This document shows, piece by piece, positions 12,522 through 63,318 of a DNA stretch of 64,000 nucleotides. The position numbers and the translations under genes are program-made. Under the pieces are notes generated by a model. It searched no databases. It was not told where the DNA came from and was given only the letters and a program-made list of their open reading frames with translations. Numbering within the stretch: position 1 is the first letter of the stretch; each line of letters begins with the position of its first letter. The stretch comes from Candidatus Omnitrophota bacterium (GTDB lineage: Bacteria > Omnitrophota > Gorgyraeia > JABMRN01 > RBG-13-46-9), in contig JBDRHE010000072.1 of the NCBI GenBank assembly GCA_043817155.1, positions 1,345 to 65,344 of the forward strand. Direction: 5' to 3'.

Positions 12522-12624
12522 GAGTAAGTAGAGAGTAGCAAGTAGCGAGCCCCGTTAGAAATTTACAATTTCTAACGGGGCGAGAAAGACTCTCTCTACT
12601 CTCTACCTGCTACTCGCTACTTAC
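12522..12624. repeat. Long imperfect palindrome (~100 bp, 14-bp perfect core stem) immediately upstream of mnmG.
   Basis: GAGTAAGTAGAGAGTAGCAAGTAGCGAGCCCCGTTAGAAATT-TAC-AATTTCTAACGGGGCGAGAAAGACTCTCTACTCTCTACCTGCTACTCGCTACTTAC. Confidence 0.75.
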
Positions 12625-15677: not shown

Positions 15678-16251
15678 AAGAATTTGCGTATTCGGTAGCT
15701 ACAAGAATCTAGGCAAGAGGAAGCGGGAAGAGATAATAAAACTCGGAAGACTTCTTGCCAAAAATGGCTTTGAAGTTGTGTCAGGAGGATTCGGCGGCAC
15801 AATGGAGGATATATCAAAAGGCGCAAAAGAGGCCGGGGGCAAGACGATAGGCGTAACATACTACAAACGGATCGATGGCCCTTCCAAGAAGCCGAACCCT
15901 TATATCGATGAAGAGATAAGAACGGACACCATCTTTAAGCGGATCGAAGCGATGATGGAGAAGTCGGATGCTTTTATAGTCCTGGAAGGAGGCACTGGTA
16001 CGCTTCTTGAGCTGGCCGCATGCCTGGAATATATCAACAAGGGCCTTATGAAGCCGAAACCGATCATAGCGCTTGGCAGTTTTTGGAAAGTGATTGCCGA
16101 TACCCTTGCCCGCGAAGAGGTGTTGAGCAAAGAGGCCGCAGCTATCTTAAGCGCCAAGACCTGCCGCGATCTAATCATATTCTCAAATAAGATAGAAGAC
16201 GTCGTGAAGATATTGATCGATTCTTTGGCGACTATATCCAATAAGCAGTAG
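15670..16251 (+). CDS. LOG family / TIGR00725 Rossmann-fold nucleotide-binding protein.
   Basis: RICVFGS...GGFGGTMEDISKGA...LEGGTGTLLE motifs. Confidence 0.6.
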   Translation: MNKRICVFGSYKNLGKRKREEIIKLGRLLAKNGFEVVSGGFGGTMEDISKGAKEAGGKTIGVTYYKRIDGPSKKPNPYIDEEIRTDTIFKRIEAMMEKSDAFIVLEGGTGTLLELAACLEYINKGLMKPKPIIALGSFWKVIADTLAREEVLSKEAAAILSAKTCRDLIIFSNKIEDVVKILIDSLATISNKQ

Positions 16252-16282
16252 CCGGGGCTTAAGCCCCGGCTACTGCTTTTTG
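16243..16282 (+). terminator. Rho-independent terminator.
   Basis: Perfect 18-bp palindromic stem AAGCAGTAGCCGGGGCTT/AAGCCCCGGCTACTGCTT followed by TTTTT. It overlaps the stop codon of the LOG-family gene. Confidence 0.8.
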
Positions 16283-30666: not shown

Positions 30667-30819
30667 GATCCCTCGGCTATACCTGGGGATTAATTACGAT
30701 CATTCAAACCTGCCTGCCTATCAGCAAGTCGGGCAGGCAGGGAAGAGAAACAGGGAAGATGAACTTATGAAAATTAGAAATTTTCATAAGTTCAGATCTC
30801 ATTAAAGGGAGAAAAACTC

Positions 30820-33800: not shown

Positions 33801-34374
33801 GCCAAACGATAAGGCGCAAATCCTAAAAGATGCTATTGACACCGATTACTTTTTGGACATTGTTTCAAAGGTTAGAACAATAAAGAATAACGGGAGATTT
33901 GATTATGTGTACAATTTAACCCTTTCCGATACCCATAGTTATTATGCGAATGGAATGCATATTGCAAATTGCGGATGTTTTGAATGTATAATCGCGATTC
34001 TGCCTGAAGCGAACGGATTCATGGTGGTGAACAGGGAGTTTCCCGGGCTTACGCCTGCGGGGATGAAATTCTCTACGCTCGCAGGGTCCGTTGGCGGCGG
34101 AAATCAGACTCCCGGATTCATGGGTGTAGGAAGGCTTTATATAATCAGTAAAAAGTTCATATCCGCTGATGGCGGATTAAAGAGGCTGGTCTGGATGCCG
34201 AAGGAACTTAAAAGTGCTCTCGGTGACAGGCTAAAGAAGAGGTGCGCGGATCTCGGCATGCCGGATCTATTTGATAAGATAGCCGATGAGACTAACGCAA
34301 CTGAATCGGAAGCATTGGTAAAATATTTAACCGAGAAGGGCCATCCGGCCATTACGATGGAACCGTTAATGTGA
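30820..34374 (+). CDS. acsB: Acetyl-CoA synthase catalytic subunit (AcsB/CdhC) interrupted by an in-frame intein.
   Basis: 1184 aa, against about 730 aa for AcsB. The extein ends ...SYPETSC and resumes CGCFECIIAILPE (the A-cluster Cys-Gly-Cys Ni site). The intervening 458 aa has intein blocks. Confidence 0.9.
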   Translation: MSRIVAQSAIRGAKKLVQEAEGLLGKAIEEKGKEQILEFPETAFFMPMANALLGAEVKTLNEALPIIKEAKSLLHEDPTNDLWLPYLGSALDSGIAALLAEEIILAIRYIYGKEPQADCNGFFTDTILRTLGIQLVDGRMPGFAAILGAAPDNKTAVDIVRDFQKRNIMTFVGSSSNGKSIIDQLKEEKIEMGWDTYIVPYGRDTVSALYPLNWAIRGALTFGGIKAGNAKKCLMYCKERVFAFGLTLGEVDDVKYATGAGAINMGFPIIADTEIPEIRPTGICTYEHLVKELDHKKIVQSCIEVRGVKVKLSEIPIPVAYSAAFEGERVRREQMYAQFGGKFSHAFEYVRSKSLDEVEDDKIEVVGPEIDEMTEGGAYPLGIVVDVAGRKMQHDFEPILERQVHTFLNEAMGIFHMGQRSMCWMRISKDAQKKGFKLRHLGVILHAQFHDIYSKIVDKVQITIYTKKEDVDRIMPEAEKVYEERDERMAGMTDESIDTFYSCTLCQSFAPNHLCIIKPERLGLCGAYSWLDAKACYELNPSGPNQPIKKGECLDPVRGEWKNINDFIYKSSNKTLEKFHGYSIMSYPETSCCTGDTEVLIGGKIVKIGDFIDLHRGGEEYARFKAATLSGGKTVEEDIVAMQRFTAPEELIRIETKSGAELVLTKDHKVFVDRQEGEAQVRADEIRDEDRIVSLKRLNLKEELPEISEIFGGRLNEDISNEIINKDLFYILGLLASDGSICRVGRREYKINFINTEPALINKYKRLAKKLFPKKNCKARIKNKNLSTIKGRIINSQKVCYDCYSNNSVLGMIAEYFGIKVGIKGVWNLAQLINLPKDFIGSFLAGIFDGDGSIRLRRYYSKWDIPEAYLCIGDKKAASHLQMLLRRFGITSFVKKSNSVYKVTLYGTNLIKFLDIAPIVHPKKKKISERVKKLSKANKGPDRAQGEVLPFGVGKILAEIPETKTILSPSTLFYYRTFRSRPVLSNVNKVIDGLPNDKAQILKDAIDTDYFLDIVSKVRTIKNNGRFDYVYNLTLSDTHSYYANGMHIANCGCFECIIAILPEANGFMVVNREFPGLTPAGMKFSTLAGSVGGGNQTPGFMGVGRLYIISKKFISADGGLKRLVWMPKELKSALGDRLKKRCADLGMPDLFDKIADETNATESEALVKYLTEKGHPAITMEPLM
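32596..33969 (+). mobile_element. Intein (458 aa) with a LAGLIDADG homing endonuclease domain, inserted in acsB.
   Basis: Block A CTGDTEVLIGG. Block B LTKDHKVFV. Two LAGLIDADG motifs (LGLLASDGSI, LAGIFDGDGSI). Block G YYANGMHIAN, followed by the +1 Cys of the CGCFEC motif. Confidence 0.85.
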
Positions 34375-42844: not shown

Positions 42845-42984
42845 CCTCGTCTTTGCGAGGTGCCGTAACATAGTTAGCGCACCGAAGCAATCTCAGACTA
42901 GCTCGAATGAGATTGCCTGCCTGCCCGTATATTTCGGGCAGGCAGGCTTCGGCACGCTCGAATTTTACGGTGCCTCGCAAAGAC
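42845..42984. repeat. Family C element, copy C5.
   Basis: CCTCGTCTTTGCGAGGTGCCGTAACATAGTTAGCGCACCGAAGCAATCTCAGACTAGCTCGAATGAGATTGCCTGCCTGCCCGTATATTTCGGGCAGGCAGGCTTCGGCACGCTCGAATTTTACGGTGCCTCGCAAAGAC. Confidence 0.85.
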
Positions 42985-50938: not shown

Positions 50939-52276
50939 ATGGATACCTGGATAAAACGAGATTTAAAACATAATTGGCACCCTTATACGCAGATGAAGGA
51001 TTGCAAGAGGCTGCCACCCATTCTGATCGAAAAGGCGAAGGGGTTAAAATTATATGATAATAAGGGTAAGTTCTATTACGATACCATATCCAGCTGGTGG
51101 TGTAATATCCATGGGCACAATCACCCTACGATAAGACGCGCCGTTAAAGAACAGCTGGATACCCTTGAACACGTACTGTTTGCCGGTTTTACTCACAAAC
51201 CGGCAATAATCTTATCAGAGAAACTCGTCTCGATCGCTCCAAAAAACCTTACAAGAGTATTCTATTCGGACAATGGATCGACAGCGGTTGAGACGGCAAT
51301 TAAGATGTCGCTTCAATACTGGTATAATACCGGCAGAAGCAACAAGAGAAGATTTATATCGCTGGATCATGGATACCATGGTGATACCGCAGGCGCTATG
51401 AGTGTAGGCGGCGTAAGCCTCTTTAACGAGGTATTCAGCCCGCTCCTCTTTAAGGCTTTCAAAGCGCCATCACCTTATTGCTATAGGTGTCCTATGGGCG
51501 AAGAGAGAGACTCCTGTGGTATAGAATGCATAAAGCCGCTCGAGAAGATATTAAAGGCAAAGAGTGGCGAAATAGCCGGCATGATCCTGGAGCCGCTTGT
51601 CATGGCAGCGGGCGGAATGATAATCTATCCGAAGGAGTACCTAAAGAAGGCGCGCGAACTTACCGGAAGATATAATGTGCATTTGATACTGGATGAGGTG
51701 GCTACCGGATTTGGAAGAACAGGGAAGATGTTCGCGTGTGAGCACACGAATACCAAGCCCGACTTCATGTGTCTCTCTAAAGGCATCACATCCGGATACA
51801 TGCCGCTTGCCGCGACACTTACTACCGGCAAGATATATAGAGCTTTCTACGCCGATCTCGAAAAGAAGAAGACCTTCTATCACGGTCACACCTACACCGC
51901 CAATCCTCTGGCATGCAGAGCGGCGCTGGCAAGTCTCGAGATCTTTAAAAATGAGGATACGCTTAAAAGGGTAGAAGCGATAGCTCCCATCTTTAATGAA
52001 GAGCTAGCAATGTTCAGAAACCTAAAGTTAATAGGGGATGTCAGGCACATAGGTATGATAGGGGCCCTTGAGCTTGTAAAGGATAAGAGCACAAAGGAGC
52101 CCTTCGCCATTAAAGATGGGATAGGCGCACGCATCTATAAGGAGGGGCTCAAGAAGAATCTTCTACTCAGGCCGCTTGGGAACATAGTCTACTTCTACCT
52201 ACCGCTTTGCATAAAGAAATCGGAGCTTCGCACCATCCTGAAGCGAACCTTCAAAATAATTAAAAGAATATATTGA
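50939..52276 (+). CDS. bioA: Adenosylmethionine-8-amino-7-oxononanoate aminotransferase.
   Basis: Class III aminotransferase with an LDEVATGFGRTG motif. 445 aa. Confidence 0.9.
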   Translation: MDTWIKRDLKHNWHPYTQMKDCKRLPPILIEKAKGLKLYDNKGKFYYDTISSWWCNIHGHNHPTIRRAVKEQLDTLEHVLFAGFTHKPAIILSEKLVSIAPKNLTRVFYSDNGSTAVETAIKMSLQYWYNTGRSNKRRFISLDHGYHGDTAGAMSVGGVSLFNEVFSPLLFKAFKAPSPYCYRCPMGEERDSCGIECIKPLEKILKAKSGEIAGMILEPLVMAAGGMIIYPKEYLKKARELTGRYNVHLILDEVATGFGRTGKMFACEHTNTKPDFMCLSKGITSGYMPLAATLTTGKIYRAFYADLEKKKTFYHGHTYTANPLACRAALASLEIFKNEDTLKRVEAIAPIFNEELAMFRNLKLIGDVRHIGMIGALELVKDKSTKEPFAIKDGIGARIYKEGLKKNLLLRPLGNIVYFYLPLCIKKSELRTILKRTFKIIKRIY

Positions 52277-52431
52277 CAGAAGTTTTTTTTCTGCTACAAT
52301 TGAAATTGAATTTCAATGTCATCCTCCTGCGCCATAGCAGAAATTCACTGTATCTATGCTCCGGAGGATGCTATCCACCGAAGCCAAACACGGTAAGTAT
52401 TTGGCGAAGGTGGATCAATAGACGCCACCGT

Positions 52432-52627
52432 CTCGTCTTTGCGAGGTGCCGTGATTTACTGAGCGCACCGAAGCAATCTCAAACGAGCTCGAATGAGATT
52501 GCCTGCCTGCCAGTATATTTCGGGCAGGCAGGCTTCGGCACGCTCGAATATTCCGGTGCCTCGCAAAGACAGAGTAAAATGAGACTGCTTCGGCACACTC
52601 CGAATTTTTTGGTATCTCGCAATGATG
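52432..52627. repeat. Family C element, copy C6, plus a degenerate extra right-end fragment.
   Basis: CTCGTCTTTGCGAGGTGCCGTGATTTACTGAGCGCACCGAAGCAATCTC...GATTGCCTGCCTGCCAGTATATTTCGGGCAGGCAGGCTTCGGCACGCTCGAATATTCCGGTGCCTCGCAAAGAC, then GAGACTGCTTCGGCACACTCCGAAT. Confidence 0.85.
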
Positions 52628-52649: not shown

Positions 52650-53075
52650 ATGAGCAAAGAGCTGGAGCTTTTTAACTCGTTCCTGAAGAAGAAGAATCTA
52701 AAGGTTACCAAACAAAGGGAAGAGCTATTAAAGATATTCTTAAATACGAGAAAACACCTTAGCGTTGAAGAATTCTATAACATTGCCAAGAAGAGAGACC
52801 ACCGCATAGGTCTTGCTACTGCGTTTAGAACGCTCAAGCTTTTGAAGGAGATGGGTATTGCCAAAGAGGTGCTCCTCGGGGATAAGATCATAAGATATGA
52901 GAGGAAGTACGGACACGGTCATCACGATCACCTTGTGTGCACTGATTGCGGAAAATGTATAGAGGCCGTAGACCCCAAAATAGAGGAGCTGCAGGATACC
53001 CTCTGTAAGAGATTTGGGTTTAAACCCGAACGGCACAGAATGGAGATCTTTGGCCTTTGTAAAAAATGTAGATAA
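52650..53075 (+). CDS. fur: Fur family transcriptional regulator.
   Basis: HHDHLVC..C zinc/regulatory site and a winged-helix N-terminus. Strong ribosome-binding site. Confidence 0.85.
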   Translation: MSKELELFNSFLKKKNLKVTKQREELLKIFLNTRKHLSVEEFYNIAKKRDHRIGLATAFRTLKLLKEMGIAKEVLLGDKIIRYERKYGHGHHDHLVCTDCGKCIEAVDPKIEELQDTLCKRFGFKPERHRMEIFGLCKKCR

Positions 53076-53149: not shown

Positions 53150-53638
53150 ATGAAGAAGATTGCGATAGTTGGAAGTCCTAACGTAGGCAAGAGCGTCTTA
53201 TTTAATGCGCTTACTAAAAGGTATGTAACGGTATCGAACTATCCCGGTACGACGGTCGAAGTTTCGCGAGGAAGGATAGAACTGGAAGGCATGGAGTATG
53301 AGGTAATCGATACGCCGGGGATGTATTCTCTTATGCCGATCACAGAAGAGGAGCGTGTTGCCAGAAGGATTCTTATAAATGAGAAGCCCGATATCGTCCT
53401 CCATGTACTCGATGCAAAGAACTTAGAGAGAATGTTATCTTTGACCTTGCAGCTATCGGAGGCGCATCTTCACACCATATTGGTGCTCAATATCATGGAT
53501 GAAGCAGCCAAAGAGGGAGTCTTTATAGATACCGCGCTACTTGAAAAGGAACTGAAGATTCCCGTTTTAGAGACTGTCTCTACAAAAGGCAAGGGGATAG
53601 AGGAGCTTAAGAAGAGGATTGTCAATCATGACAAATGA
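53150..53638 (+). CDS. feoB: Ferrous iron transporter FeoB, N-terminal GTPase domain, encoded as a separate ORF.
   Basis: GSPNVGKS (G1), DTPG (G3) and NIMD (G4) motifs. 162 aa. Confidence 0.8.
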   Translation: MKKIAIVGSPNVGKSVLFNALTKRYVTVSNYPGTTVEVSRGRIELEGMEYEVIDTPGMYSLMPITEEERVARRILINEKPDIVLHVLDAKNLERMLSLTLQLSEAHLHTILVLNIMDEAAKEGVFIDTALLEKELKIPVLETVSTKGKGIEELKKRIVNHDK

Positions 53639-55076
53639 ATATAAAGGACCGGTCGAATACTCTATAGAGATCGCAGCTGAGAGGATCGAGGCCCTCTTAA
53701 AGGCCGATTACGGCATCTCCAAGCGGTCAATCGCTCTCCTTCTTTTGCAGGAGGATGGCGAAATATTGGATCTTGCGAAGGAGAGAGATCCTGGATCCTT
53801 TCCTGAGATAGATGAATCTATAGAGGAGCTCAAATCACATTATTCCAATCCGATTGTGTACGAGCTGGCGGTTGAAAGGCAAAACGTAGTAAAGGAGATA
53901 ACAGGGAAGGTAGTGAAACTGCGCAAAACTAAGGTCTCTTTCCAGGAAAGATTGAGCCGTCTTACAACGAATCCGGTAACGGGGATACCCATACTTCTAT
54001 TTATTCTTTACATAGGGTTGTATAAGTTTGTAGGTGGGTTTGGCGCAGGAACCATAGTTGATTTTTTGGAGAGGACTATCTTCGAAGAGCGCCTGAATCC
54101 TTTTTTGATAGACCTATTTACCCGCTTTGTTCCATGGGGGGTTATACGGGATCTATTTGTCGGGGAATACGGATTAGTAACGATGGGATTCAGGTATGCA
54201 GTAGCATTGATATTGCCCATCGTTACTCTCTTCTTTGTTGTATTCTCTATAATAGAAGATAGCGGTTATCTGCCGCGCCTTGCGATGCTGATCGACAGAA
54301 CGTTCAAAAAGATCGGCTTAAGCGGAAGGGCTGTTATACCTATGGTGCTGGGGTTCGGATGCGCAACAATGGCAACAATGGTTACAAGGACTCTTCCGAC
54401 CAAACGTGAGCGTGTTATTGCGACCATGCTTCTTGCTCTGGCTGTACCGTGTTCAGCGCAGCTTGGAGTTATCCTGGCTCTTCTGGAGGGTAAGACCGGC
54501 GCTATGTTCATATGGGTCGGGGTGGTTAGTTTTATATTTTTATTTATCGGTTTTCTGACAGCAAAAATTCTACCGGGAGAGAGGCCGTCATTCTATATGG
54601 AGATACCGCCACTACGCATGCCGGGGCTCTCCAATGTGCTTACAAAGACATACGTAAGGGTTAAGTGGTATTTTAAAGAGATACTGCCGATCTTTCTTAT
54701 AGCGAGCGTTCTTATATGGTTTGGTCAGCTTATAGGACTATTTGATCTATTAATAAGGTTTCTTGCAAAACCCGTAGCTCTTATAGGTTTACCTGAGGAA
54801 GCGGCAAAGATATTCTTGTTCGGTTTTTTTAGGCGGGACTATGGTGCAGCCGGGCTTTATGACCTTAATAAGCAGGGGCTATTAAGCGGCGTGCAGCTTG
54901 TAGTCGCATGTGTAGCTTTGACACTATTCCTTCCGTGTATCGCGCAGTTCCTTATTAATGTAAAAGAACGCGGATGGAAGACCGGGTTTGCAATATCGAT
55001 ATTCATACTCTTCTTCTCTTTTGGAGCTGCGTATACGGTCAATCTCCTGTTGACAAGATTGGGAGTGGTGTTATGA
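53628..55076 (+). CDS. feoB: FeoB GDI/helical domain plus membrane permease domain, encoded as a separate ORF.
   Basis: 485 aa with gate-motif-containing TM helices. Overlaps the upstream ORF by 11 nt in the +1 frame. Confidence 0.8.
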   Translation: MTNEYKGPVEYSIEIAAERIEALLKADYGISKRSIALLLLQEDGEILDLAKERDPGSFPEIDESIEELKSHYSNPIVYELAVERQNVVKEITGKVVKLRKTKVSFQERLSRLTTNPVTGIPILLFILYIGLYKFVGGFGAGTIVDFLERTIFEERLNPFLIDLFTRFVPWGVIRDLFVGEYGLVTMGFRYAVALILPIVTLFFVVFSIIEDSGYLPRLAMLIDRTFKKIGLSGRAVIPMVLGFGCATMATMVTRTLPTKRERVIATMLLALAVPCSAQLGVILALLEGKTGAMFIWVGVVSFIFLFIGFLTAKILPGERPSFYMEIPPLRMPGLSNVLTKTYVRVKWYFKEILPIFLIASVLIWFGQLIGLFDLLIRFLAKPVALIGLPEEAAKIFLFGFFRRDYGAAGLYDLNKQGLLSGVQLVVACVALTLFLPCIAQFLINVKERGWKTGFAISIFILFFSFGAAYTVNLLLTRLGVVL

Positions 55077-55252
55077 TTAAGTGCACGCTCTGTGGACTTG
55101 AATTCAATAAAAGTGACGCGAAGGGCGGCTGCACGAGCTGTCCGATGTTAAAGAATAATTGCGAACTTGTAAGGTGTCCCAACTGCGGGTTTGAGACAGT
55201 TTGCCCCGTGGAACGGTCCAAAGATAAAAAGGAAGGAAACCTACCGAAATGA
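55073..55252 (+). CDS. Small Cys-rich (8 Cys) zinc-ribbon-like protein.
   Basis: MIKCTLCGLEF...GGCTSCPMLKNNCELVRCPNCGFE. Translationally coupled (TGATG-type overlap) to feoB and dtxR. Confidence 0.4.
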   Translation: MIKCTLCGLEFNKSDAKGGCTSCPMLKNNCELVRCPNCGFETVCPVERSKDKKEGNLPK

Positions 55253-55887
55253 TATTGACGGACAAAGAAGAAGAGATATTGGAGAGGCTTTGGATAGAGT
55301 TGATAGAACAGAAGAAGGGTCTCTGTGATCCCGAGACCTTCAGAGACAATGAAAGCCTCGAACGCTTAGACGATCTGGGCTATATAAAAATAGAAGAAGC
55401 CCGGATAACTCTTACAGCGAAGGGTGAAGGCGAAGCGAAATATTGCGTAAGAAGGCACCGTCTGGCAGAGAGATTATTTGTAGATGTGTTTGACATCAAA
55501 ATGAAATCGGCTCACGCTCCAAGCTGCAAATTTGAACATCTGCTTCATAAGGGACTTGATGAGAGCATATGTACGCTTTTGGGTCACCCGAAAACATGTC
55601 CACATGGGAAGGCTATACCCGAAGGCAATTGTTGTAATAGGGCCAGGGTGGATCCAAAGAAAATTATAATGCCCTTGCACGAACTAGATGTGAATAAGAA
55701 AGCAAAGATCTGCTATCTTCAGACAAAAGACTCAAGCACCTTGCAGAAGGCCATTGCGATAGGCGCATTGCCTAATACGGAGATCTCTCTTATACAGAAG
55801 ACCCCCTCTATCGTGTTCCAGGTAGGGAAGAGTCAATTCGCCATAGACACCGAACTCGCAAGTCATATATACGTAAGGATATTATAG
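55249..55887 (+). CDS. DtxR/MntR family metal-dependent transcriptional regulator with a C-terminal FeoA (SH3-like) domain.
   Basis: N-terminal HTH. Metal-site residues in RRHRLAERLF...HAPSCKFEH. C-terminal FeoA-like beta domain. Confidence 0.7.
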   Translation: MILTDKEEEILERLWIELIEQKKGLCDPETFRDNESLERLDDLGYIKIEEARITLTAKGEGEAKYCVRRHRLAERLFVDVFDIKMKSAHAPSCKFEHLLHKGLDESICTLLGHPKTCPHGKAIPEGNCCNRARVDPKKIIMPLHELDVNKKAKICYLQTKDSSTLQKAIAIGALPNTEISLIQKTPSIVFQVGKSQFAIDTELASHIYVRIL

Positions 55888-55889
55888 AG

Positions 55890-56807
55890 ATGGACTATCA
55901 GGCGATGACCACAGATTTTATTCATACACTTAAATACTATCTGATCGAGATAATACCCGCTCTCGGGATCGGGTTCTTCCTGAGCGGGCTGGTCCACGAG
56001 TTTATCCCTTCCCACTGGATAAACAGGCATCTTGGCGGCAGGGGAATGAAGGGCATTCTATATTCTACATTAATAGGTACACTTATGCCTGTATGTTGTT
56101 GGGGGTCTCTTCCGATAGCAATGAGCTTTTACATGAGAGGGGCGTCTCTAGGGCCGGTACTCGCGATACTCATTGCCACGCCTGCCACCTCGATCAATGC
56201 GATCATCGTAACCGGTAAATTCTTTGGACTTAAGCTCGCGGCATTCCTATTCTTCTCCGTTATATCGATAGGTGTAACAGCCGGCATAGTCGGTAACATG
56301 ATAAAGGTAAAGCGGAGAGAGTTACCTGACGAGTCGTGTGAATGCCCAACATGCGAGACTGATGAAGGCAAGAGTAAGCCACAGAAGAGAGGACTCAGTC
56401 AGCGCCTCTTGTCCGTTCTCAAGTTTGCGTACATTGATATGCCGAAGAGAATCGGGGTAGAGACGGCTATAGGTCTTCTGCTCGCGGCATTTATAAGCAC
56501 AGTAACTCCCGTTGGGTATTTAGTAAAGAACTACCTGGCAGGGAGCGCGGGATATATATTCTCTGTAATCTTCGGGCTTGCCATGTATATGTGCGCTACC
56601 ATGGGAGTGCCTCTAGTTTACGCTTTTGTAAAACAGGGGCTCGCGATCGGTCCGGGCTTCACGCTACTTCTAATTGGGCCTATCACAAGCTACGGCACAA
56701 TACTTGTGCTGAAGAAGGAATTCGGAATGAAGATACTGGGGATATATCTATCCTTAATATGCGTTACATCGGTACTTTTAGGATATGTATATAGCCTGAT
56801 CCGGTAA
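55890..56807 (+). CDS. Permease of the DUF318/UPF0718 family (two-repeat membrane protein with a central Cys-rich cytoplasmic loop).
   Basis: About 8 TM helices. PVCCWGS motif and CECPTCE loop. Confidence 0.55.
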   Translation: MDYQAMTTDFIHTLKYYLIEIIPALGIGFFLSGLVHEFIPSHWINRHLGGRGMKGILYSTLIGTLMPVCCWGSLPIAMSFYMRGASLGPVLAILIATPATSINAIIVTGKFFGLKLAAFLFFSVISIGVTAGIVGNMIKVKRRELPDESCECPTCETDEGKSKPQKRGLSQRLLSVLKFAYIDMPKRIGVETAIGLLLAAFISTVTPVGYLVKNYLAGSAGYIFSVIFGLAMYMCATMGVPLVYAFVKQGLAIGPGFTLLLIGPITSYGTILVLKKEFGMKILGIYLSLICVTSVLLGYVYSLIR

Positions 56808-56828
56808 GGGAGTTTTTTAACCGGTAAT

Positions 56829-56866
56829 CATTCCAACCCCGGGCTGAACAACCCGGGGCTGGAATG
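56829..56866. repeat. Family D short hairpin, copy D5.
   Basis: CATTCCAACCCCGGG-CTGAACAA-CCCGGGGCTGGAATG. Confidence 0.75.
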
Positions 56867-56921
56867 CGCATCTCGGCTGTTGACGAAAAGTGACGATTAT
56901 CGAGACTCGACCCCAAGTTAT

Positions 56922-57662
56922 ATGAGAAAATTCGCTCTTATTGCATTGGTGTTTTTTAATGCTGCATGCGCCTGGTGCCCTTTATGGCTTTTCACTCAGG
57001 ATTCTGTAGAAGAGAATATATTTTTTTCATATGAAAGATTCTATCCCCAGGCAAGTGTGGTAAAAGATCCTCACCGGGATGGCATAGTACAGACCAACAT
57101 AAGCGATTTTATGCAAAATTATTCAGACGGCATATACGCCATATCCGCGGGGGAAACGGAAAAAGCAAAAAGTAACCTATTAAAAGCGCGGGCAATCTGG
57201 CCGGAATATTTCGGCACGGATTTTCTTTTGGCCCGTGTAAACGAAGACGAGAGGCACTATGGCCTGTCAGCCAGATTTTACAAAAGTTATTTAAATAAAT
57301 TAAGATCTTTGTCCGCAGGGGAATACAGGGTTTCAGAAAAGCTCATAGAGACTATAACCCCTTACAAAATAGAGAACTATGACGAGGCATATATATTCGT
57401 TGAAGAGAGGCTAATGCGATACGGTATAGATCTGGCCAGAGTCCGACCTGTTTATATGATCCTGCCTTTTATCAAGTATTTGATCATATTTTTCGTAATA
57501 GGGACAGGGTGTATAGCAGTGGTTTACAAGGTTATACCGTATATTAAGATGCGGCAGCTTATAAAAAATCCTCCCGAAGGATTTTGGGTGTGTAGTAATT
57601 GCGGAACGGAAAACACTCTGCTTCAAAAAAAATGTGAAAAATGCGACAATTTTAAACAATAG
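56922..57662 (+). CDS. Hypothetical protein with an N-terminal signal/TM segment, a TPR-like segment, a C-terminal TM segment and a zinc ribbon.
   Basis: MRKFALIALVFFNAACA N-terminus and C-terminal WVCSNCGTENTLLQKKCEKC motif. Confidence 0.45.
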   Translation: MRKFALIALVFFNAACAWCPLWLFTQDSVEENIFFSYERFYPQASVVKDPHRDGIVQTNISDFMQNYSDGIYAISAGETEKAKSNLLKARAIWPEYFGTDFLLARVNEDERHYGLSARFYKSYLNKLRSLSAGEYRVSEKLIETITPYKIENYDEAYIFVEERLMRYGIDLARVRPVYMILPFIKYLIIFFVIGTGCIAVVYKVIPYIKMRQLIKNPPEGFWVCSNCGTENTLLQKKCEKCDNFKQ

Positions 57663-57697
57663 GAACAGTGACCATTTTTTAAAAAAAGGAGGAGAAG

Positions 57698-57925
57698 ATG
57701 GCAGAAGCTGAAAGCAAACATGATAAATTTAAAAGGCTGGCATCGCTAAGGGTGACGAATGCAATAAAGAAGATAGAGCTGATAGGGAACCTGACCGGTT
57801 CCGGTTACGAATCCACACCGGAAGAGGTGGAGAAGATATTCAAGGCCATCCAGGATACACTGGACGTTGTTAAAGGCAAATTTTCCAAGACAAAGAGGGT
57901 AGACAGCAGCAAGTTCGAGCTGTAA
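57698..57925 (+). CDS. Small hypothetical protein (75 aa).
   Basis: Strong AAAGGAGGAG ribosome-binding site. No recognised family. Confidence 0.4.
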   Translation: MAEAESKHDKFKRLASLRVTNAIKKIELIGNLTGSGYESTPEEVEKIFKAIQDTLDVVKGKFSKTKRVDSSKFEL

Positions 57926-57974
57926 TAAAGAGTGCCTTTTTTTAAATTGGCTATCCCATGTTATATCTTTTTTC

Positions 57975-58003
57975 TTGACAAAAGCCGAATTATAGTATAT
58001 AAT
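57975..58003 (+). promoter_or_regulatory. Consensus sigma70-type promoter TTGACA-17-TATAAT.
   Basis: TTGACA at 57975-57980 and TATAAT at 57998-58003. Predicted transcription start near 58010. Confidence 0.6.
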
Positions 58004-58025
58004 TGATAATGGAAACCGTTATCAA
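58003..58025 (+). promoter_or_regulatory. Inverted repeat TTGATAA-N9-TTATCAA overlapping the -10 element and transcription start: a candidate autoregulatory operator.
   Basis: Its arms match Fur-box half-sites (TGATAAT). Confidence 0.4.
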
Positions 58026-58038
58026 TAGGAGATGCGAA

Positions 58039-58509
58039 ATGCCCAGACGAGACGGAACAGGGCCACCATGGTGGCATGGAAGATTTAGGGGATGTGGCTA
58101 CAGGATGACTGTGCCGAGGCAGGCTATATTAGATGTATTATGCAGAACATCCAAGCATCTAAGCGCTGAGGATGTATATATGGCTGTTCATAAGGTCTAT
58201 CCCAATGTCGGCCTTACTACGATCTATCGTACTTTAGAATTATTGGTCCAGATGGGACTTGTTTTTAAGTTCGATTTCGGTGATGGAAGAGCACGCTATG
58301 AGTTATCAGAAGGACCAAAGGGAGCCAGGCATCACCATCATTTAGTCTGCACAAGCTGTGGCAGAGCCATTGATTATACAGATTTCATAGATGAAGAAGT
58401 AGAATTGCTTAACCAAACCGAAAAAGGACTCTCAAAAAAGTACAATTTCAAAATTACAAATCATCTCATCCAGTTCTATGGGCAATGCGATAGGTGTAAG
58501 AAGGGATAA
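58039..58509 (+). CDS. Fur family transcriptional regulator (second paralog) with a 22-aa Gly/Pro/Arg-rich N-terminal extension (MPRRDGTGPPWWHGRFRGCGYR).
   Basis: AGGAG ribosome-binding site 7 nt upstream of the ATG at 58039. The Fur core starts MTVPRQAILDVL. HHHHLVCTSCG regulatory site. Confidence 0.7.
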   Translation: MPRRDGTGPPWWHGRFRGCGYRMTVPRQAILDVLCRTSKHLSAEDVYMAVHKVYPNVGLTTIYRTLELLVQMGLVFKFDFGDGRARYELSEGPKGARHHHHLVCTSCGRAIDYTDFIDEEVELLNQTEKGLSKKYNFKITNHLIQFYGQCDRCKKG

Positions 58510-58521
58510 ATTTTTTTTCAA

Positions 58522-58548
58522 TGTAAATGACAATGATTGTCATTTACA
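58522..58548 (+). promoter_or_regulatory. Perfect 13-1-13 palindrome TGTAAATGACAAT-G-ATTGTCATTTACA, a Fur-family 7-1-7-type operator candidate (core TGACAATgATTGTCA).
   Basis: Lies between the Fur-family gene and the downstream small-protein/NifX-like operon. Compare the Fur box TGATAATnATTATCA. Confidence 0.55.
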
Positions 58549-58565
58549 AAAAAAAGGTGATTAAT

Positions 58566-58850
58566 ATGCCAGGTGGAGACGGAACTGGCCCTATTGGAAT
58601 GGGGCCGATGACAGGTGGTGGTAGAGGCCATTGTGCTGTTTCGGTTGGAAGAACGCGGAATCGTACTTTTGCCGGGAGATCTTTTGGTGGAGGCAGACGT
58701 CGAGGCTGCGCCGGCCTGCCGACTTGGATGCGATTTAATCAAATGCAGGCAGAAGAAGAGCTTGAAACGCTTAAAGCATATGCGGGTGACATGAAACAAG
58801 AACTCGCGAATATAGAAGAGCGCATAGAAACTCTGCAAAAGTCAAAATGA
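58566..58850 (+). CDS. Small Gly/Pro/Arg-rich protein with a C-terminal coiled coil. It resembles the DUF5320-type proteins found next to NifX-like genes in anaerobes.
   Basis: MPGGDGTGPIGMGPMTGGGRGHCA... then EELETLKAYAGDMKQELANIEERIETLQK. AAGGTGA ribosome-binding site. Confidence 0.55.
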   Translation: MPGGDGTGPIGMGPMTGGGRGHCAVSVGRTRNRTFAGRSFGGGRRRGCAGLPTWMRFNQMQAEEELETLKAYAGDMKQELANIEERIETLQKSK

Positions 58851-58884
58851 GAAAGTAAATAAGAAAGAGATACACACGATATAA

Positions 58885-59259
58885 ATGGAGGAACTGATGA
58901 AACTAGGGATAACTCTGGAAGATGAGAGAGGCATAGATGGCAATGTATCGCTTCATTTCGGGCAATGCAAATATTTTCTCATTGCGGACATAGAAGGCAA
59001 AAAGGTTGCGTGTTCAAAGGTTGTGCCTAATACAGCTGTGCATGGTGGTGGAGGATGTGTTGCAGTGGATGAGATTCTAAAACACAATATTACCCATGTT
59101 ATATCAGGCGGTATGGGTATGGGCGCCCAGAATAAATTTGCTCAAGCAGGCGTTAAGGTTTTTGGATATTCTGGCAAGGTAAAAGACGCGGTAGACGCGC
59201 TTATTAAGAATAATCTAGGCGGATTAGATGCTTGTCATCAGCATGGAGAGTGTAGTTAA
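58885..59259 (+). CDS. NifX/NifB-C-terminal-like dinitrogenase FeMo-cofactor-binding domain protein.
   Basis: About 120 aa with HFGQCKYFLIADIEGKK... and VISGGMG motifs of the NifX/NafY fold. Confidence 0.7.
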   Translation: MEELMKLGITLEDERGIDGNVSLHFGQCKYFLIADIEGKKVACSKVVPNTAVHGGGGCVAVDEILKHNITHVISGGMGMGAQNKFAQAGVKVFGYSGKVKDAVDALIKNNLGGLDACHQHGECS

Positions 59260-59271
59260 AAAAAGGAGATA

Positions 59272-59652
59272 ATGATGAAAGTTTGTGTTACCTCAGAAGG
59301 AAATGCTTTAGATGCCAAGGTTGATCAGCGTTTTGGAAGATGCCAGTATTTCATATTTGTTGATACAGAGACCTTAGAATTTGAGGCAATTGAAAACCCT
59401 AACATTAGTGCTTCTGGCGGTGCCGGTATTCAAGCAGCTCAACTTGTTGCACAGGAGGAAGTAAAGGCAATTTTGACCGGCAATGTGGGTCCAAATGCCT
59501 TTCAAACGTTACAAGCAGCAGGGATCGGTGTGATTACCGGAGCATCCGGTACTGTTAAAGATGTGATAGAGAAGTACAAAAAGAGTGAATTTAAGCCAAC
59601 CCAGGGTCCAAGTGTAAATTCGAAATTCGGCATACCCGGAAAAGAAAAGTAA
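59272..59652 (+). CDS. NifX-like FeMo-cofactor-binding domain protein (paralog).
   Basis: RFGRCQYFIFVD and ILTGNVGPNA motifs. Strong ribosome-binding site. Confidence 0.7.
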   Translation: MMKVCVTSEGNALDAKVDQRFGRCQYFIFVDTETLEFEAIENPNISASGGAGIQAAQLVAQEEVKAILTGNVGPNAFQTLQAAGIGVITGASGTVKDVIEKYKKSEFKPTQGPSVNSKFGIPGKEK

Positions 59653-59666
59653 GGGAGGATCATAAG

Positions 59667-59891
59667 ATGCCATTTAAAGACGCAGCGGGACCAATCGGTC
59701 AGGGTCCAGGTCAAGGTCGAGGCATGGGTAGAGGAGGTAGGCGAAGCAGAGGTCGTCACATTGCGCCTGGCGCAGGACCCGGGGGATATTGTGTCTGCCC
59801 AAGATGTGGCACAAAGATTTCTCATCAGGCCGGGGCACCATGCGGTTCTTTAAATTGTTCAAAATGTGGAAGTCGAATGGCGCGGGAGTAA
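59667..59891 (+). CDS. Small Gly/Pro/Arg-rich protein with a C-terminal zinc ribbon (paralog of the N-termini at 58039 and 58566).
   Basis: MPFKDAAGPIGQGPGQGRGMGRGGRRSRGR...CVCPRCG...CSKCG. AGGGAGG ribosome-binding site. Confidence 0.5.
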   Translation: MPFKDAAGPIGQGPGQGRGMGRGGRRSRGRHIAPGAGPGGYCVCPRCGTKISHQAGAPCGSLNCSKCGSRMARE

Positions 59892-59894
59892 TTC

Positions 59895-60503
59895 TTGGAA
59901 GAGCAATTATCAGAAAACCATAAAAGATATTTAGAGAGAATAAATTTTTACAAAGATTTTGGTTATGATGTTGAAGAAGAGAGAAAATTTATCTTAGAAA
60001 AGTCATGCCCTCTCTATGGAGATATAGTAGAGGTAGGAACGGGCAAGGGATATTTCACTGTTGAACTTGCCAAAGAAGGATACAACTTTACCACTATAGA
60101 TATTTCAGATGAAGAGCAGGAATTTGCCAGACTTAATATAAGATATTTCGGCCTTGAAAAACTTGTAGATTTTAGAATAGAGAACGCCGAGTACTTGAGT
60201 TTTGATAATTCCAGCTTCGATATAATATTTTCTATTAATACAATTCATCATCTTACCAATCCGGCTAAGGTAACAGAAGAGCTGATAAGGATAGTTACTC
60301 TTGAAGGAAAGATAATTTTAAGCGATTTCACCGAAGACGGTTTAAAAATTATAAATAAAATTCATGCAACTGAAGGACGAGTGCATGAAGCCGGTCAAAC
60401 AAGTTTATCAGAAGTAGGTAATTATTTAGAGCAGAGAAGATTCGGTATGCAAAAGCATAAAAGCAGGTTTCAGGAGATACTTATCGCATATCGCCAAAGG
60501 TGA
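59895..60503 (+). CDS. Class I SAM-dependent methyltransferase.
   Basis: VEVGTGKGYFT motif I. TTG start. Its stop codon lies inside repeat A4. Confidence 0.65.
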   Translation: MEEQLSENHKRYLERINFYKDFGYDVEEERKFILEKSCPLYGDIVEVGTGKGYFTVELAKEGYNFTTIDISDEEQEFARLNIRYFGLEKLVDFRIENAEYLSFDNSSFDIIFSINTIHHLTNPAKVTEELIRIVTLEGKIILSDFTEDGLKIINKIHATEGRVHEAGQTSLSEVGNYLEQRRFGMQKHKSRFQEILIAYRQR

Positions 60504-60552
60504 TATGTGTTTTTGATGGAGGGGGGCCCGGACTTTAGTCCGGGGGCTCCAC
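60491..60552. repeat. Family A element, partial copy A4 (hairpin 3 plus spacer).
   Basis: TCGCCAAAGGTGATATGTGTTTTTGATGGAGGGGGGCCCGGACTTTAGTCCGGGGGCTCCAC. Ends 5 nt before the ATG of the MinD-like gene. Confidence 0.8.
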
Positions 60553-60557
60553 TAGTT

Positions 60558-61394
60558 ATGATTATATCAATTGCCAGCGGAAAAGGCGGAACAGGAAAAA
60601 CCACAGTTGCTACAAGTCTCGCCCTCTCCATAAATAGCGGTATTCAGCTTTTGGACTGTGATGTAGAAGAGCCCAACGCCCATATATTCCTAAAACCTAA
60701 AATTCAACAAAGCAAAACCGTATATATCCCCGTACCTAAAATAGACGAATCTAAATGTACCTTTTGCGGGAGATGTGCGGAAGTTTGCACTTATAATGCT
60801 CTTGCCGTACTGAAAGAGAAAGTTTTAACGTTCCCGCATCTATGCCACGGCTGTGGAGGGTGTAATCTTTTTTGTCCCCAGAAAGCGATTACAGAAGGCG
60901 ATAAAAAAATAGGTGTCGTAGAGATTGGCAATTCATCTCACGTGCAATTTGTGCATGGAAGATTAAATATTGGTGAAGTAATGTCGCCCCCCCTGATTAG
61001 AGCGGTTAAAGAGTATATCAACCCAACCAGATCCGTTATTGTAGACGCTCCTCCGGGTACATCCTGTCCTGTTATCGAATCGGTTAAGGGAAGCGACTTT
61101 TGTATATTAGTTACCGAGCCAACACCTTTTGGTTTAAATGATCTAATATTGGCTGTTGAGGTCTTGAAAAAATTAACTATACCTTTCGGGATAGCGGTCA
61201 ATAGGGCTGATATCGGAGATAGCAGCCTAGACGATTATTGCGAGAAAGAGAATATTCCTATACTAATGCGGATACCTTTTAAAAAGAAAATAGCTTTTGC
61301 CTATTCAAAAGGGCTTGCTCTTGTTAGTGAATTTCCAGAATATAAGAAGGAATTTATTCGAGTTTATAAAGAAATTTCAGAAAGAATAAGATGA
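60558..61394 (+). CDS. MinD/Mrp-like P-loop ATPase with an inserted 2x(4Fe-4S) ferredoxin domain.
   Basis: SGKGGTGKTT Walker A motif plus CTFCGRCAEVC and CHGCGGCNLFCP motifs. Confidence 0.75.
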   Translation: MIISIASGKGGTGKTTVATSLALSINSGIQLLDCDVEEPNAHIFLKPKIQQSKTVYIPVPKIDESKCTFCGRCAEVCTYNALAVLKEKVLTFPHLCHGCGGCNLFCPQKAITEGDKKIGVVEIGNSSHVQFVHGRLNIGEVMSPPLIRAVKEYINPTRSVIVDAPPGTSCPVIESVKGSDFCILVTEPTPFGLNDLILAVEVLKKLTIPFGIAVNRADIGDSSLDDYCEKENIPILMRIPFKKKIAFAYSKGLALVSEFPEYKKEFIRVYKEISERIR

Positions 61395-62236
61395 AGCAAA
61401 TAGTAGTAATCAGCGGAAAGGGTGGTACGGGTAAGACTGTGTTAACAGCATCATTTGCTGCTTTGGCGAAAAACGCTAGTTTCGCAGACTGTGATGTAGA
61501 TGCGCCTGATCTGCATTTATTATTAAAACCGGAAATAAAGGAAAAGCATGAATTTAGAAGCGGAAAGACGGCAAAGATAGATAAGAGACTCTGCCAGGAA
61601 TGCGGTAAATGTATTGATATATGCAGGTTTGATGCGTTACGTAAAGATTTTACAATAGATTCTATTTCCTGTGAAGGCTGTGCTGTTTGTAGTCGCGTAT
61701 GTCCAACTAATGCAATCACCATGGAAGAGAATCTATCGGGAGAATGGTTTATTTCAGAAACAAAATATGGCCCCATGGTACACGCAAGGCTTGGCATCGC
61801 TGAGGAAAACTCGGGTAAGCTTGTAACGTTAGTGAGGCAAAATGCGAAGAAAATCGCGGAAGAAAGAAATAAAGACTATTGTATTATTGATGGGCCTCCG
61901 GGAATTGGATGTCCGGTGATCGCTTCATTAGCCAATGTAGATCTAGCCTTGATAGTTACAGAACCCACCCTGTCGGGTATCCATGATATGGAACGGGTCG
62001 CCGATGTTACTAAGCACTTTAGCATCAATACAAAGGTCGTAATAAATAAGTACGATATTAATTTTAAAAACGCCCAGGATATTAGAAAAATATGCCAAGT
62101 CAGGAAAGTAGAAGTTGTGGCCGAGTTGCCCTTTTCTGAAAATGTAACCAGGTCGGTAGTGCGAGGTATGCCCATTGTTGAATTCTGCAATGACCAAATA
62201 GCAAAGGATATAGTTGCTTTATGGAAGAAGATTTAG
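61391..62236 (+). CDS. MinD/Mrp-like P-loop ATPase with an inserted 4Fe-4S ferredoxin domain (paralog).
   Basis: SGKGGTGKTV plus CQECGKCIDIC and CEGCAVCSRVCP motifs. ATGA overlap with the upstream gene. Confidence 0.75.
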   Translation: MKQIVVISGKGGTGKTVLTASFAALAKNASFADCDVDAPDLHLLLKPEIKEKHEFRSGKTAKIDKRLCQECGKCIDICRFDALRKDFTIDSISCEGCAVCSRVCPTNAITMEENLSGEWFISETKYGPMVHARLGIAEENSGKLVTLVRQNAKKIAEERNKDYCIIDGPPGIGCPVIASLANVDLALIVTEPTLSGIHDMERVADVTKHFSINTKVVINKYDINFKNAQDIRKICQVRKVEVVAELPFSENVTRSVVRGMPIVEFCNDQIAKDIVALWKKI

Positions 62237-62601
62237 TTGCTTATCCAGAACATATTATAGCGCTTGCTAAGGACTCCACACACTTTGGAAGAATGAATGA
62301 TCCTACGAGTGCAGCAATCATTAAAGGGCCTTGCGGCGATGAAATGGAATTTTATCTTGTTATTAAGGACAGGATTATTGAGGATATAAAATTTTACACT
62401 AAAGGATGCTTAGCTACAATCGTCTGCGGCTCTATGACCGCACAGTTAGCATTAGGAAAATCTATTGACGAAGTACTGGGGATTTCTCCCAAAGAGGTTG
62501 TTGATGCCTTGAGTGGTTTATCAGAAGATCACTGTCACTGCTCTATTTTGGCTGTCAGTGCCATTTATAGGGCCATTGCGGATTACCTACTTAAGAAATG
62601 A
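62221..62601 (+). CDS. IscU/NifU N-terminal-like Fe-S scaffold domain protein.
   Basis: GPCGDEM, GCLATIVCGS and HCHCS motifs (the three Cys plus His of IscU). Confidence 0.7.
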   Translation: MEEDLVAYPEHIIALAKDSTHFGRMNDPTSAAIIKGPCGDEMEFYLVIKDRIIEDIKFYTKGCLATIVCGSMTAQLALGKSIDEVLGISPKEVVDALSGLSEDHCHCSILAVSAIYRAIADYLLKK

Positions 62602-62604
62602 AAC

Positions 62605-63318
62605 ATGCAAATAAAAATACTTTTTGATAGCGTTGCTTTGGATAATAGGTTTTTAACGGGTTGGGGTGTTTCATATTTGATTGATGGTAAGATTTTATTC
62701 GATACAGGGGAGAAATCAAGCTCGTTGCTTAAAAATATGAAAAATATGGATGTAGATATTTCCAATTTGAAAGCAGTGATTATTTCTCATGATCATTGGG
62801 ATCACAGAGGTGGTTTATGGGGAATTTTAAAAAAAAATCCCAAACTGAAAGTTTATATTTGTCCTCGTTTCAGTAAAAGATCCAAGAATAGGATTGTATC
62901 CCATGGAGGTCAATTAATCGAAGTTGATAAATTTACTCAGATATGTAAAAATATATATACTACCGGAGAGATAGGAGGAAAATATAATGGCAAGCACATG
63001 CCGGAACAAGCCTTAGTTTTAAAAACATCAAAAGGTATATCGATTCTTACGGGGTGCGCCCATCCGGGCATAATGAGGATAATTGAAAATGCGAAACAAA
63101 ATATTGCTGGCAATGTTTATCTTGTAATGGGTGGTTTTCATTTGAGAGGAAAGCATAAAAAAACAATCAGTCCCATCGTAAGTAAATTTAAGCAATTGGG
63201 AGTGAAGAAAGCTGCACCTGCTCATTGCACAGGCAGAGGAGCAAAAAGAATCTTTTTGAAGGTTTACAAGCGCAATTTTACTTCGATAAAAACCGGACAG
63301 ATAATAAATATCTGGTAA
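62605..63318 (+). CDS. MBL-fold metallo-hydrolase.
   Basis: ISHDHWDHRGG metal-binding motif. Confidence 0.65.
   Translation: MQIKILFDSVALDNRFLTGWGVSYLIDGKILFDTGEKSSSLLKNMKNMDVDISNLKAVIISHDHWDHRGGLWGILKKNPKLKVYICPRFSKRSKNRIVSHGGQLIEVDKFTQICKNIYTTGEIGGKYNGKHMPEQALVLKTSKGISILTGCAHPGIMRIIENAKQNIAGNVYLVMGGFHLRGKHKKTISPIVSKFKQLGVKKAAPAHCTGRGAKRIFLKVYKRNFTSIKTGQIINIW

Follow-up and report, generated by a model that had tools for sequence, protein, structure and literature searches.

In Bacillus subtilis, single mirrored positions tell the boxes of Fur, PerR and Zur apart. All three reportedly follow a 7-1-7 layout, with TGATAAT-N-ATTATCA for Fur, TTATAAT-N-ATTATAA for PerR and TCGTAAT-N-ATTACGA for Zur. 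For Geobacter, Desulfuromonas and Desulfovibrio, the dFUR box WTGAAAATNATTTTCAW was derived in 2004, and its site table holds TGAcAAT half-sites at feoA and hdd of D. vulgaris and at fld and feoA3 of D. desulfuricans G20 (Rodionov et al. 2004, Genome Biol 5:R90, PMC545781). The orp operons of D. vulgaris Hildenborough, which encode Nitro_FeMo-Co (NifX-like) proteins and MinD/Mrp-type Fe-S ATPases, are activated by sigma-54 and the redox-sensing activator OrpR (PMC8359166, PMC6345978). The OrpR paper makes no mention of Fur, and the searchable literature yielded no Fur regulon tied to Nitro_FeMo-Co proteins; its mentions of DUF5320 were unrelated. Nor did that literature describe the arrangement reported here, in which a Fur-family gene, fur2, and a DUF5320/ORP-like operon stand beside a feo-linked Fur gene with a different box.

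This arrangement lies in a 64-kb stretch of Omnitrophota DNA (64,000 nucleotides, hereafter the window). Between fur2 and the operon, the first-pass annotation had claimed a perfect 27-bp palindrome with a 7-1-7 core, and the exact sequence is found there: box2, TGTAAATGACAAT-G-ATTGTCATTTACA, is a perfect 13-1-13 palindrome centered on G58535. Its 13-bp arms are beyond chance, since the longest perfect palindrome in 100 shuffles that kept the local composition had 12-bp arms (loop of at most 3 nt). The core, TGACAAT-G-ATTGTCA, has the 7-1-7 Fur-box layout, with T1 G2 A3 and T13 C14 A15 in place; it is perfectly symmetric and, again as claimed, departs from TGATAAT-N-ATTATCA at one mirrored position (C/G at 4/12). 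The exact 15-mer occurs once in the window, and looser matches to the core (up to 3 mismatches) are at chance level, with 3 found and 2.7 expected. The flanking gaps needed correcting from 13 and 18 nt to 12 nt after the fur2 stop, which ends at 58509, and 17 nt before the ATG at 58566, with the box 7 nt ahead of the DUF5320 ribosome-binding site. We read box2 as the second of two predicted operators of Fur2, one through which Fur2 would repress the downstream DUF5320 operon, and we give this reading a probability of roughly 0.8 (features in Table 1).

Table 1. Features of the fur2-DUF5320 locus and of the Fur1 promoter region, in window coordinates.
Feature	Position	Strand	Details
Fur1 promoter TTGACA-17-TACAAT and palindrome ATTGAAATT-G-AATTTCAAT	52274..52317	+	5' of Fur1 and feoB
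Sigma-70 promoter of the Fur2 gene, TTGACA-17-TATAAT	57975..58003	+	12/12 consensus match
box1, predicted Fur2 operator at its own promoter, TAATGGAAACCGTTATCAATA	58007..58027	.	core 58010-58024
Fur2, Fur-family regulator, 156 aa, N-terminal extension MPRRDGTGPPWWHGRFRGCGYR	58039..58509	+	Pfam FUR E 5.5e-32
TAAATT hexamer (overlaps fur stop) and T-run, candidate -10 of a weak internal promoter	58507..58518	+	
box2, predicted Fur2 operator before the DUF5320 operon	58522..58548	.	21-mer 58525-58545, core 58528-58542
Ribosome-binding site GGTGA of the DUF5320 gene	58556..58560	+	read from sequence
DUF5320 protein, first gene of the operon	58566..58850	+	Pfam DUF5320 E 4.6e-19
Two NifX-like (Nitro_FeMo-Co domain) proteins	58897-59259, 59275-59652	+	Pfam E 2.2e-18, 4.2e-27
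74-aa DUF5320-like Zn-ribbon protein, SAM methyltransferase, two MinD/CbiA-type ATPases with 4Fe-4S motifs, NifU/IscU-like scaffold	59667..62601	+	

The gene upstream of box2 had been called a Fur paralog, and its Pfam match bears this out; "paralog" is apt because a second Fur gene, Fur1, is present at 52650-53075. The fur2 reading frame spans 58003-58509, with its likely start at ATG 58039 and AGGAG ahead of it at 58027-58031. The best NCBIfam match of Fur2 is Bacillus-type Fur (127 bits, under the 220-bit cut-off) and its best solved-structure match is Fur 9ire (E 2.7e-30); an exact-sequence look-up returned no record of the window's Fur2. Homologues (P0001-P0120; L001-L080) are 80-90% identical across Omnitrophota, Nitrospirota, WOR-3, Atribacterota, Planctomycetota and others, and they share the N-terminal extension MPRxxGTGPPWWHGRFRGCGYR. 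In 20 aligned homologues, neither the recognition-helix residues GLTT-YRTL nor the His/Glu/Cys metal ligands vary. Fe2+ is the probable effector, given the constancy of these canonical Fur metal-site residues and the iron sensing of the closest characterized relatives, which are Fur proteins. Unusually strong constraint would account for the identity of Fur2 across phyla, and so would a recent horizontal spread of a fur2-DUF5320 module. Fur1 homologues are merely 60-70% identical within Omnitrophota, whereas Fur2 homologues keep their identity between phyla.

In domain content, the operon downstream of box2 resembles the orp operons of D. vulgaris, combining Nitro_FeMo-Co proteins with MinD/Mrp-like Fe-S ATPases as ORP clusters do. 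Both NifX-like proteins match the C-terminal domain of MrpORP. Gene order at the NifX-like pair is identical in L170, L171 and L175, and L171 keeps that of the operon's remainder as well. The 74-aa Zn-ribbon protein has a DUF5320-like N-terminus, and its L171 homologue has a weak DUF5320 Pfam match. The likeness to orp is one of domain content, however: here the promoter is of the sigma-70 type, the predicted regulator is a Fur-family repressor and a DUF5320 gene comes first. No enhancer-binding-protein gene was found among the annotated genes at 55249-63318, so that the sigma-54/OrpR part of an ORP cluster has no counterpart in a comparison based on these annotated genes and on the sigma-70-type promoter with its Fur box. 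MPxxDGTGP-like starts recur in three proteins of the cluster, namely Fur2 (58039), the DUF5320 protein (58566) and the 74-aa Zn-ribbon protein (59667). A profile of 53 DUF5320 N-termini matched Fur2 N-termini marginally (E 0.002-0.03 in a 562-sequence set), and N-terminal homology between Fur2 and DUF5320 proteins is suggestive, not established.

The assignment of box2 to Fur2 is carried by comparison with 80 related loci from many phyla (one genome per species, 620 kb in total). The 35 boxes found downstream of fur in other genomes were combined into a symmetrised matrix of 21 columns, to which the window did not contribute. Scanned against the 64-kb window, the matrix gave 25.7 bits for a site at the fur2 promoter, box1, and 24.2 bits for box2; the next best score was 7.3 bits, and the maximum over 40 shuffles was 14.5 bits. 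No other site in the window exceeded 7.3 bits, and no further site of this type preceded feoB, the feo genes, the DtxR-like gene or the permease. Across the 620 kb of the 80 loci, 109 matches reached at least 17 bits: 68 upstream of fur, 35 immediately downstream and 6 elsewhere, so that 103 of the 109 adjoin fur on either side. Counted by locus, 68/80 have the box upstream of fur, and 35/78 have it in the gap from the fur stop to the DUF5320 ribosome-binding site, a distribution that lends strong comparative support to the earlier proposal that box2 is an operator of the adjacent Fur paralog. Four of the six matches elsewhere (L015, L019, L042 and L068) precede a DUF5320 gene that stands apart from fur, each behind a canonical TTGACA-17-TATATT or TATAAT promoter, and the box thus accompanies the DUF5320 operon wherever this is located. 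As far as these genomes indicate, the box would have the fur promoter as one target and the start of the DUF5320 operon as the other.

Conservation extends to the layout around both sites. Reading on from the fur stop, the 35 loci have in common, in this order, a T-run, the box TTAATGAAAAT-N-ATTTTCATTAA, an AGGAGG and a gene whose product begins MPGGDGTGP (DUF5320); in related loci AGGAGGTG occupies the place of the DUF5320 ribosome-binding site. On the other side, TTGACA-17-TATAnT followed by GATAATGGAAACCATTTTCAATAAGGAG stands 5' of fur in almost all related loci. The sequence is therefore conserved at orthologous positions beside a Fur-family gene, as is characteristic of a Fur box. In 53 of 78 loci, a DUF5320-type reading frame begins no more than 230 nt from the fur stop, and the presence of box2 follows the identity of Fur2 to that of the window: 32/44 loci at 65% or more, 3/21 at 50-64% and 0/13 below 50%. 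This distribution suggests that box2 is a later addition within a highly conserved clade. In distant relatives without box2, the DUF5320 ribosome-binding site comes directly after fur, and the genes would therefore form a plain operon under box1 alone. These relatives apparently manage with box1, and any contribution of box2 beyond that of box1 is putative. In the close relative L170 (3472-3607), about 95 nt with two G+C-rich hairpins are inserted between box2 and the DUF5320 ribosome-binding site, which shows that additional sequence can be accommodated 3' of the operator.

The same alignments bear on a further claim, that the symmetric C/G at positions 4 and 12 defines a new operator specificity class belonging to a diverged Fur paralog. 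The idea draws on the perfect symmetry of a core that is one mirrored position off TGATAAT-N-ATTATCA, and on the established fact that single mirrored positions separate the Fur, PerR and Zur boxes of B. subtilis. Position 4, however, turned out to be the most variable core position of the Fur2-type box (A149, T45, C7 and G3 in 204 half-sites from 102 sites of other genomes). Position 6 is A in 203 of these 204 half-sites, and the classical TGATAAT half-site occurs 30 times. The 36 aligned box2 sites all have A5, A6, T11, C14 and A15, and each of T1, G2 and T10 is found in 35/36; at position 4, 31 sites have A, 4 have T and the window alone has C, and at position 12 the counts are T 22, A 7 and G 7. 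The closest relatives (L001, L002 and L170-L175), whose Fur2 is 88-91% identical to that of the window, carry TGAAAAT-G-ATTGTCA. The bottom-strand TGACAAT half-site is thus already present in them, and the window adds one A-to-C change in one arm.

Other boxes tell against a new class in the same way. The window's own box1 has the half-site TGGAAAC, with A at position 4, and A at position 12, which makes its mirrored half-site TGATAAC, with T. A metagenome-wide search for the symmetric variant AATGACAATNATTGTCATT gave 89 matches: 4 are box1 of other Fur2 homologues (L081, L096, L167 and L164), with the symmetric TGACAAT-N-ATTGTCA, and the other 85 are heterogeneous-looking and have no Fur homologue nearby. 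Apart from those 4, the search told nothing about a regulon. TGATAAT, TGAAAAT, TGGAAAT and TGACAAT are all half-sites of Fur2-type boxes. The orthologous consensus, with the core TGAAAAT-N-ATTTTCA, is identical to dFUR, and the window site aTGAcAATgATTgTCAt agrees with WTGAAAATNATTTTCAW at 14 of 16 specified positions; the deviations already occur among the listed dFUR sites, where TGAcAAT half-sites have been published. A class of its own would be marked by a discriminating base conserved in orthologues and by a changed recognition helix, and we found neither. Since position 4 is the most variable and the recognition helix of Fur2 is invariant, the new class is unsupported, and we give it very little credence. 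Hence, the C/G pair is a tolerated, lineage-specific variant of the TGAAAAT-N-ATTTTCA box, to judge from the aligned sites, and box2 is an unremarkable variant of a kind of Fur box that has been described before.

The dFUR comparison goes beyond consensus. Both boxes have the 7-1-7 layout, and both occur upstream of fur, where they point to autoregulation; the dFUR box sometimes comes as overlapping boxes shifted by 6 bp. Unlike dFUR, which marks a broad iron regulon (feoAB, fld and others), the box described here was found only around Fur2 and the DUF5320 operon; it occurs in Omnitrophota and many other phyla, and the feo-linked Fur1 of the window has a different box. Fur1 is 37% identical to Fur2 and lies 5.5 kb away, directly before a split feoB. 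Its promoter (52274-52302) overlaps a 9-1-9 palindrome at 52299-52317. We compared four Fur1 orthologues with distinct upstream regions, on six contigs (loci L176-L183), all in fur-feoA-feoB or fur-feoB arrangements. All four have ATTGAwATTGAAwTTCAAwATCAAT at the same place, which amounts to overlapping TGAwATT-N-AATwTCA boxes, and the Fur1 boxes score 5-12.5 bits with the Fur2 matrix, below threshold. Fur1 and Fur2 boxes differ at the mirrored positions 6/10 (T versus A), which are invariant in Fur2 boxes (A in 203/204), and this difference supports assigning box2 to Fur2. The notion of a single discriminating mirrored position, as in the heptamer inverted repeats with one central base that B. 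subtilis Fur-family dimers bind and that part paralogs by one or two mirrored positions, therefore fails at position 4, which is non-discriminating here, and may hold at position 6, between Fur1 and Fur2. That one mirrored position separates the two operators is a tentative conclusion from a small Fur1 sample.

These boxes also bear on whether box2 serves a different regulator, either Fur1 or a Fur-family protein encoded elsewhere in the genome, with the operon forming part of a global iron regulon. A second Fur gene lies only 5.5 kb off, the consensus coincides with the general Fur box of delta-proteobacteria, found ahead of feoAB and fur genes, and our view of the genome spans the 64-kb window. 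Against this, the box tracks Fur2 orthologues on both of their flanks in many phyla, the box of Fur1 orthologues has T at position 6 and stays sub-threshold with the Fur2 matrix, and no Fur2-type box precedes the window's own feo genes. Control by another regulator is improbable on this balance, and Fur2 is the better candidate.

Two features of the Fur1 region deserve mention in their own right. The split feoB consists of a G-domain reading frame (53150-53638) and a membrane-domain reading frame (53619-55076) that overlap by 20 nt, and the same split is called in L176. A REP-like hairpin, CCTGCCTGCC-N11-13-GGCAGGCAGG, occurs in three copies in the window (30709-30741, 42916-42946 and 52502-52532; 0 expected). 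The copy at 52502 lies within a G+C-rich stretch of about 330 nt between the Fur1 promoter/operator and the Fur1 start, and this stretch is probably an insertion, because it is absent in Fur1 orthologues.

A palindrome behind a stop codon might also act as RNA. In that case, box2 would mainly be a hairpin in the fur-DUF5320 transcript, processing or stabilizing it and uncoupling expression of the regulator from that of the operon. The RNA of the window folds into a 12-bp stem, extended by pairing between a U-run and an A-run, at -16.2 kcal/mol (z -3.6); a U-rich tract lies ahead of the stem, and all three substitutions within the 27-mer relative to the closest relatives restore pairing. In those relatives, however, the box is intact but the RNA is no more stably folded than its shuffled versions (z +1.5 and -0.3). 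In the alignment of 36 box2 sites, mirrored columns form Watson-Crick pairs as often as independent columns would (pair 4/12, 21 observed versus 19.9 expected; pair 3/13, 26 versus 23.1), and there is no compensatory or covariation signal. It follows that the sequence is conserved and not the pairing. Moreover, a 1-nt center is impossible as an RNA loop, the motif also sits at promoters (box1 and the stand-alone DUF5320 promoters), and Rfam has no family at the site (no match with E <0.8). With no covariation, an unstable fold in relatives and no Rfam match, an RNA hairpin as the main role was rejected, and we regard it as very improbable. The conserved property is the two half-site sequences, as expected of a site for a dimeric protein.

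The position directly behind the stop codon could likewise suggest an intrinsic fur terminator, and the other long perfect palindromes and dispersed REP-like hairpins of the window a chance or selfish palindrome with no regulatory role. The stem is AT-rich, though, with a T-run upstream and an A-run downstream on both strands, and the specific sequence is kept at the same position in 35 other genomes. A terminator in particular was discarded on the AT-rich stem, the A-run that follows it on the + strand and the silence of the terminator scan at the site. Neither variant seems to us at all credible.

The perfection of the palindrome calls for a separate account. The eight closest relatives have the consensus TATAAATGAAAATGATTGTCATTAACA, from which the window 27-mer departs by three substitutions, 58523 A->G, 58531 A->C and 58545 A->T, each of which mends one of three mismatched mirror pairs. 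By a rough estimate, the chance that three random substitutions in the 27-mer would all be repairs is ~48/81^3, or ~9e-5. The three repairs point either to templated quasi-palindrome correction at replication or to a lineage in which symmetry, or a hairpin, was selected for. The perfect symmetry in the window accounts for the notice that the site drew in the first-pass annotation but leaves the operator assignment unchanged.

How might two operators work together? Box1 sits between the -10 of the fur promoter and the fur ribosome-binding site, behind a TTGACA-17-TATAnT layout that is also found 5' of fur in most related loci. It would overlap the transcription start of this promoter, and Fur2 would thereby regulate its own gene. 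At box2, a metal-loaded Fur2 dimer could shut off the DUF5320 operon in two ways, by occluding a weak internal promoter with the -10-like TAAATT (58507-58512) 15 nt upstream of box2, and by acting as a roadblock to RNA polymerase reading through from the fur promoter. Occlusion and roadblock would presumably share the repression in some balance.

The internal promoter is only suggested, by a conserved hexamer and a T-run. In 25 of 36 loci (L001-L053 range and the window), a TAnnnT hexamer, conserved as TA(T/A)A(T/A)T and present as TAAATT in the window, begins 19-21 nt ahead of the box; also in 25 of 36, the distance from the end of a 7-8-nt T-run to box2 is exactly 9 nt. At the stand-alone DUF5320 promoters, the -10 lies at a similar distance, 11-12 nt before the box core. 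A position-by-position search of the 36 aligned intergenic regions gave no consistent -35/-10 pair, and the 56-nt intergenic region of the window has no canonical one; with no consistent -35, an internal promoter would be weak. A box that overlaps or follows a promoter is thus seen for box1 and in L015, L019, L042 and L068, and box2 of the window has the -10-like TAAATT without a -35. Looping between box1 and box2 at a fixed phasing was also considered. The centers are 518 bp apart in the window and 518-530 bp apart in ten related loci, and looping is unsupported because the distance tracks gene length and the phase is not conserved.

The palindrome itself matters little, being a normal Fur-type box. 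The wider arrangement, with a conserved Fur subfamily, a DUF5320/ORP-like operon, usually two operators and a feo-linked Fur nearby, is more interesting. It offers a testable regulatory link between a Fur-family protein and a widespread, uncharacterized DUF5320/NifX-like/MinD-like cluster of anaerobes in many, mostly uncultured phyla. The Fur1/Fur2 pair, with operators seemingly one mirrored position apart, could become a simple system in which to study the avoidance of cross-talk between paralogs. A bolder version would make Fur2 an undescribed, extremely conserved subfamily and a dedicated local regulator of the DUF5320/ORP-like operon, not a global iron regulator, in which the N-terminal MPxxDGTGP...GxGY shared with DUF5320 could sense the state of the system rather than free Fe2+, and which would be insulated from Fur1 by operator position 6 (A versus T). 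We offer this version as speculation and consider it unlikely as a whole.

Further palindromes came to light during the analysis. At 30760-30794 lies a perfect palindrome with 16-bp arms, TGAACTTATGAAAATT-AGA-AATTTTCATAAGTTCA, in which Fur2-type half-sites, ATGAAAAT and ATTTTCAT, are 5 nt apart versus 1 nt in the Fur2 box; a reading frame of 1184 aa (30820-34374) starts at 30820, 25 nt beyond the end of the palindrome. Further long perfect palindromes, with arms of 13-18 bp, are at 16243-16278, 12549-12581, 2431-2461 and 2462-2488, the last two adjacent (2431-2488). On metagenome contigs (L102, L119, L120, L157, L158, L162 and L163), TTGACA...AAATGACAAT(T/A)ATTGTCATTTTG forms a recurrent family. 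These contigs show no Fur homologue close by, and the element, a promoter plus palindrome that contains the exact 19-mer, is unrelated.
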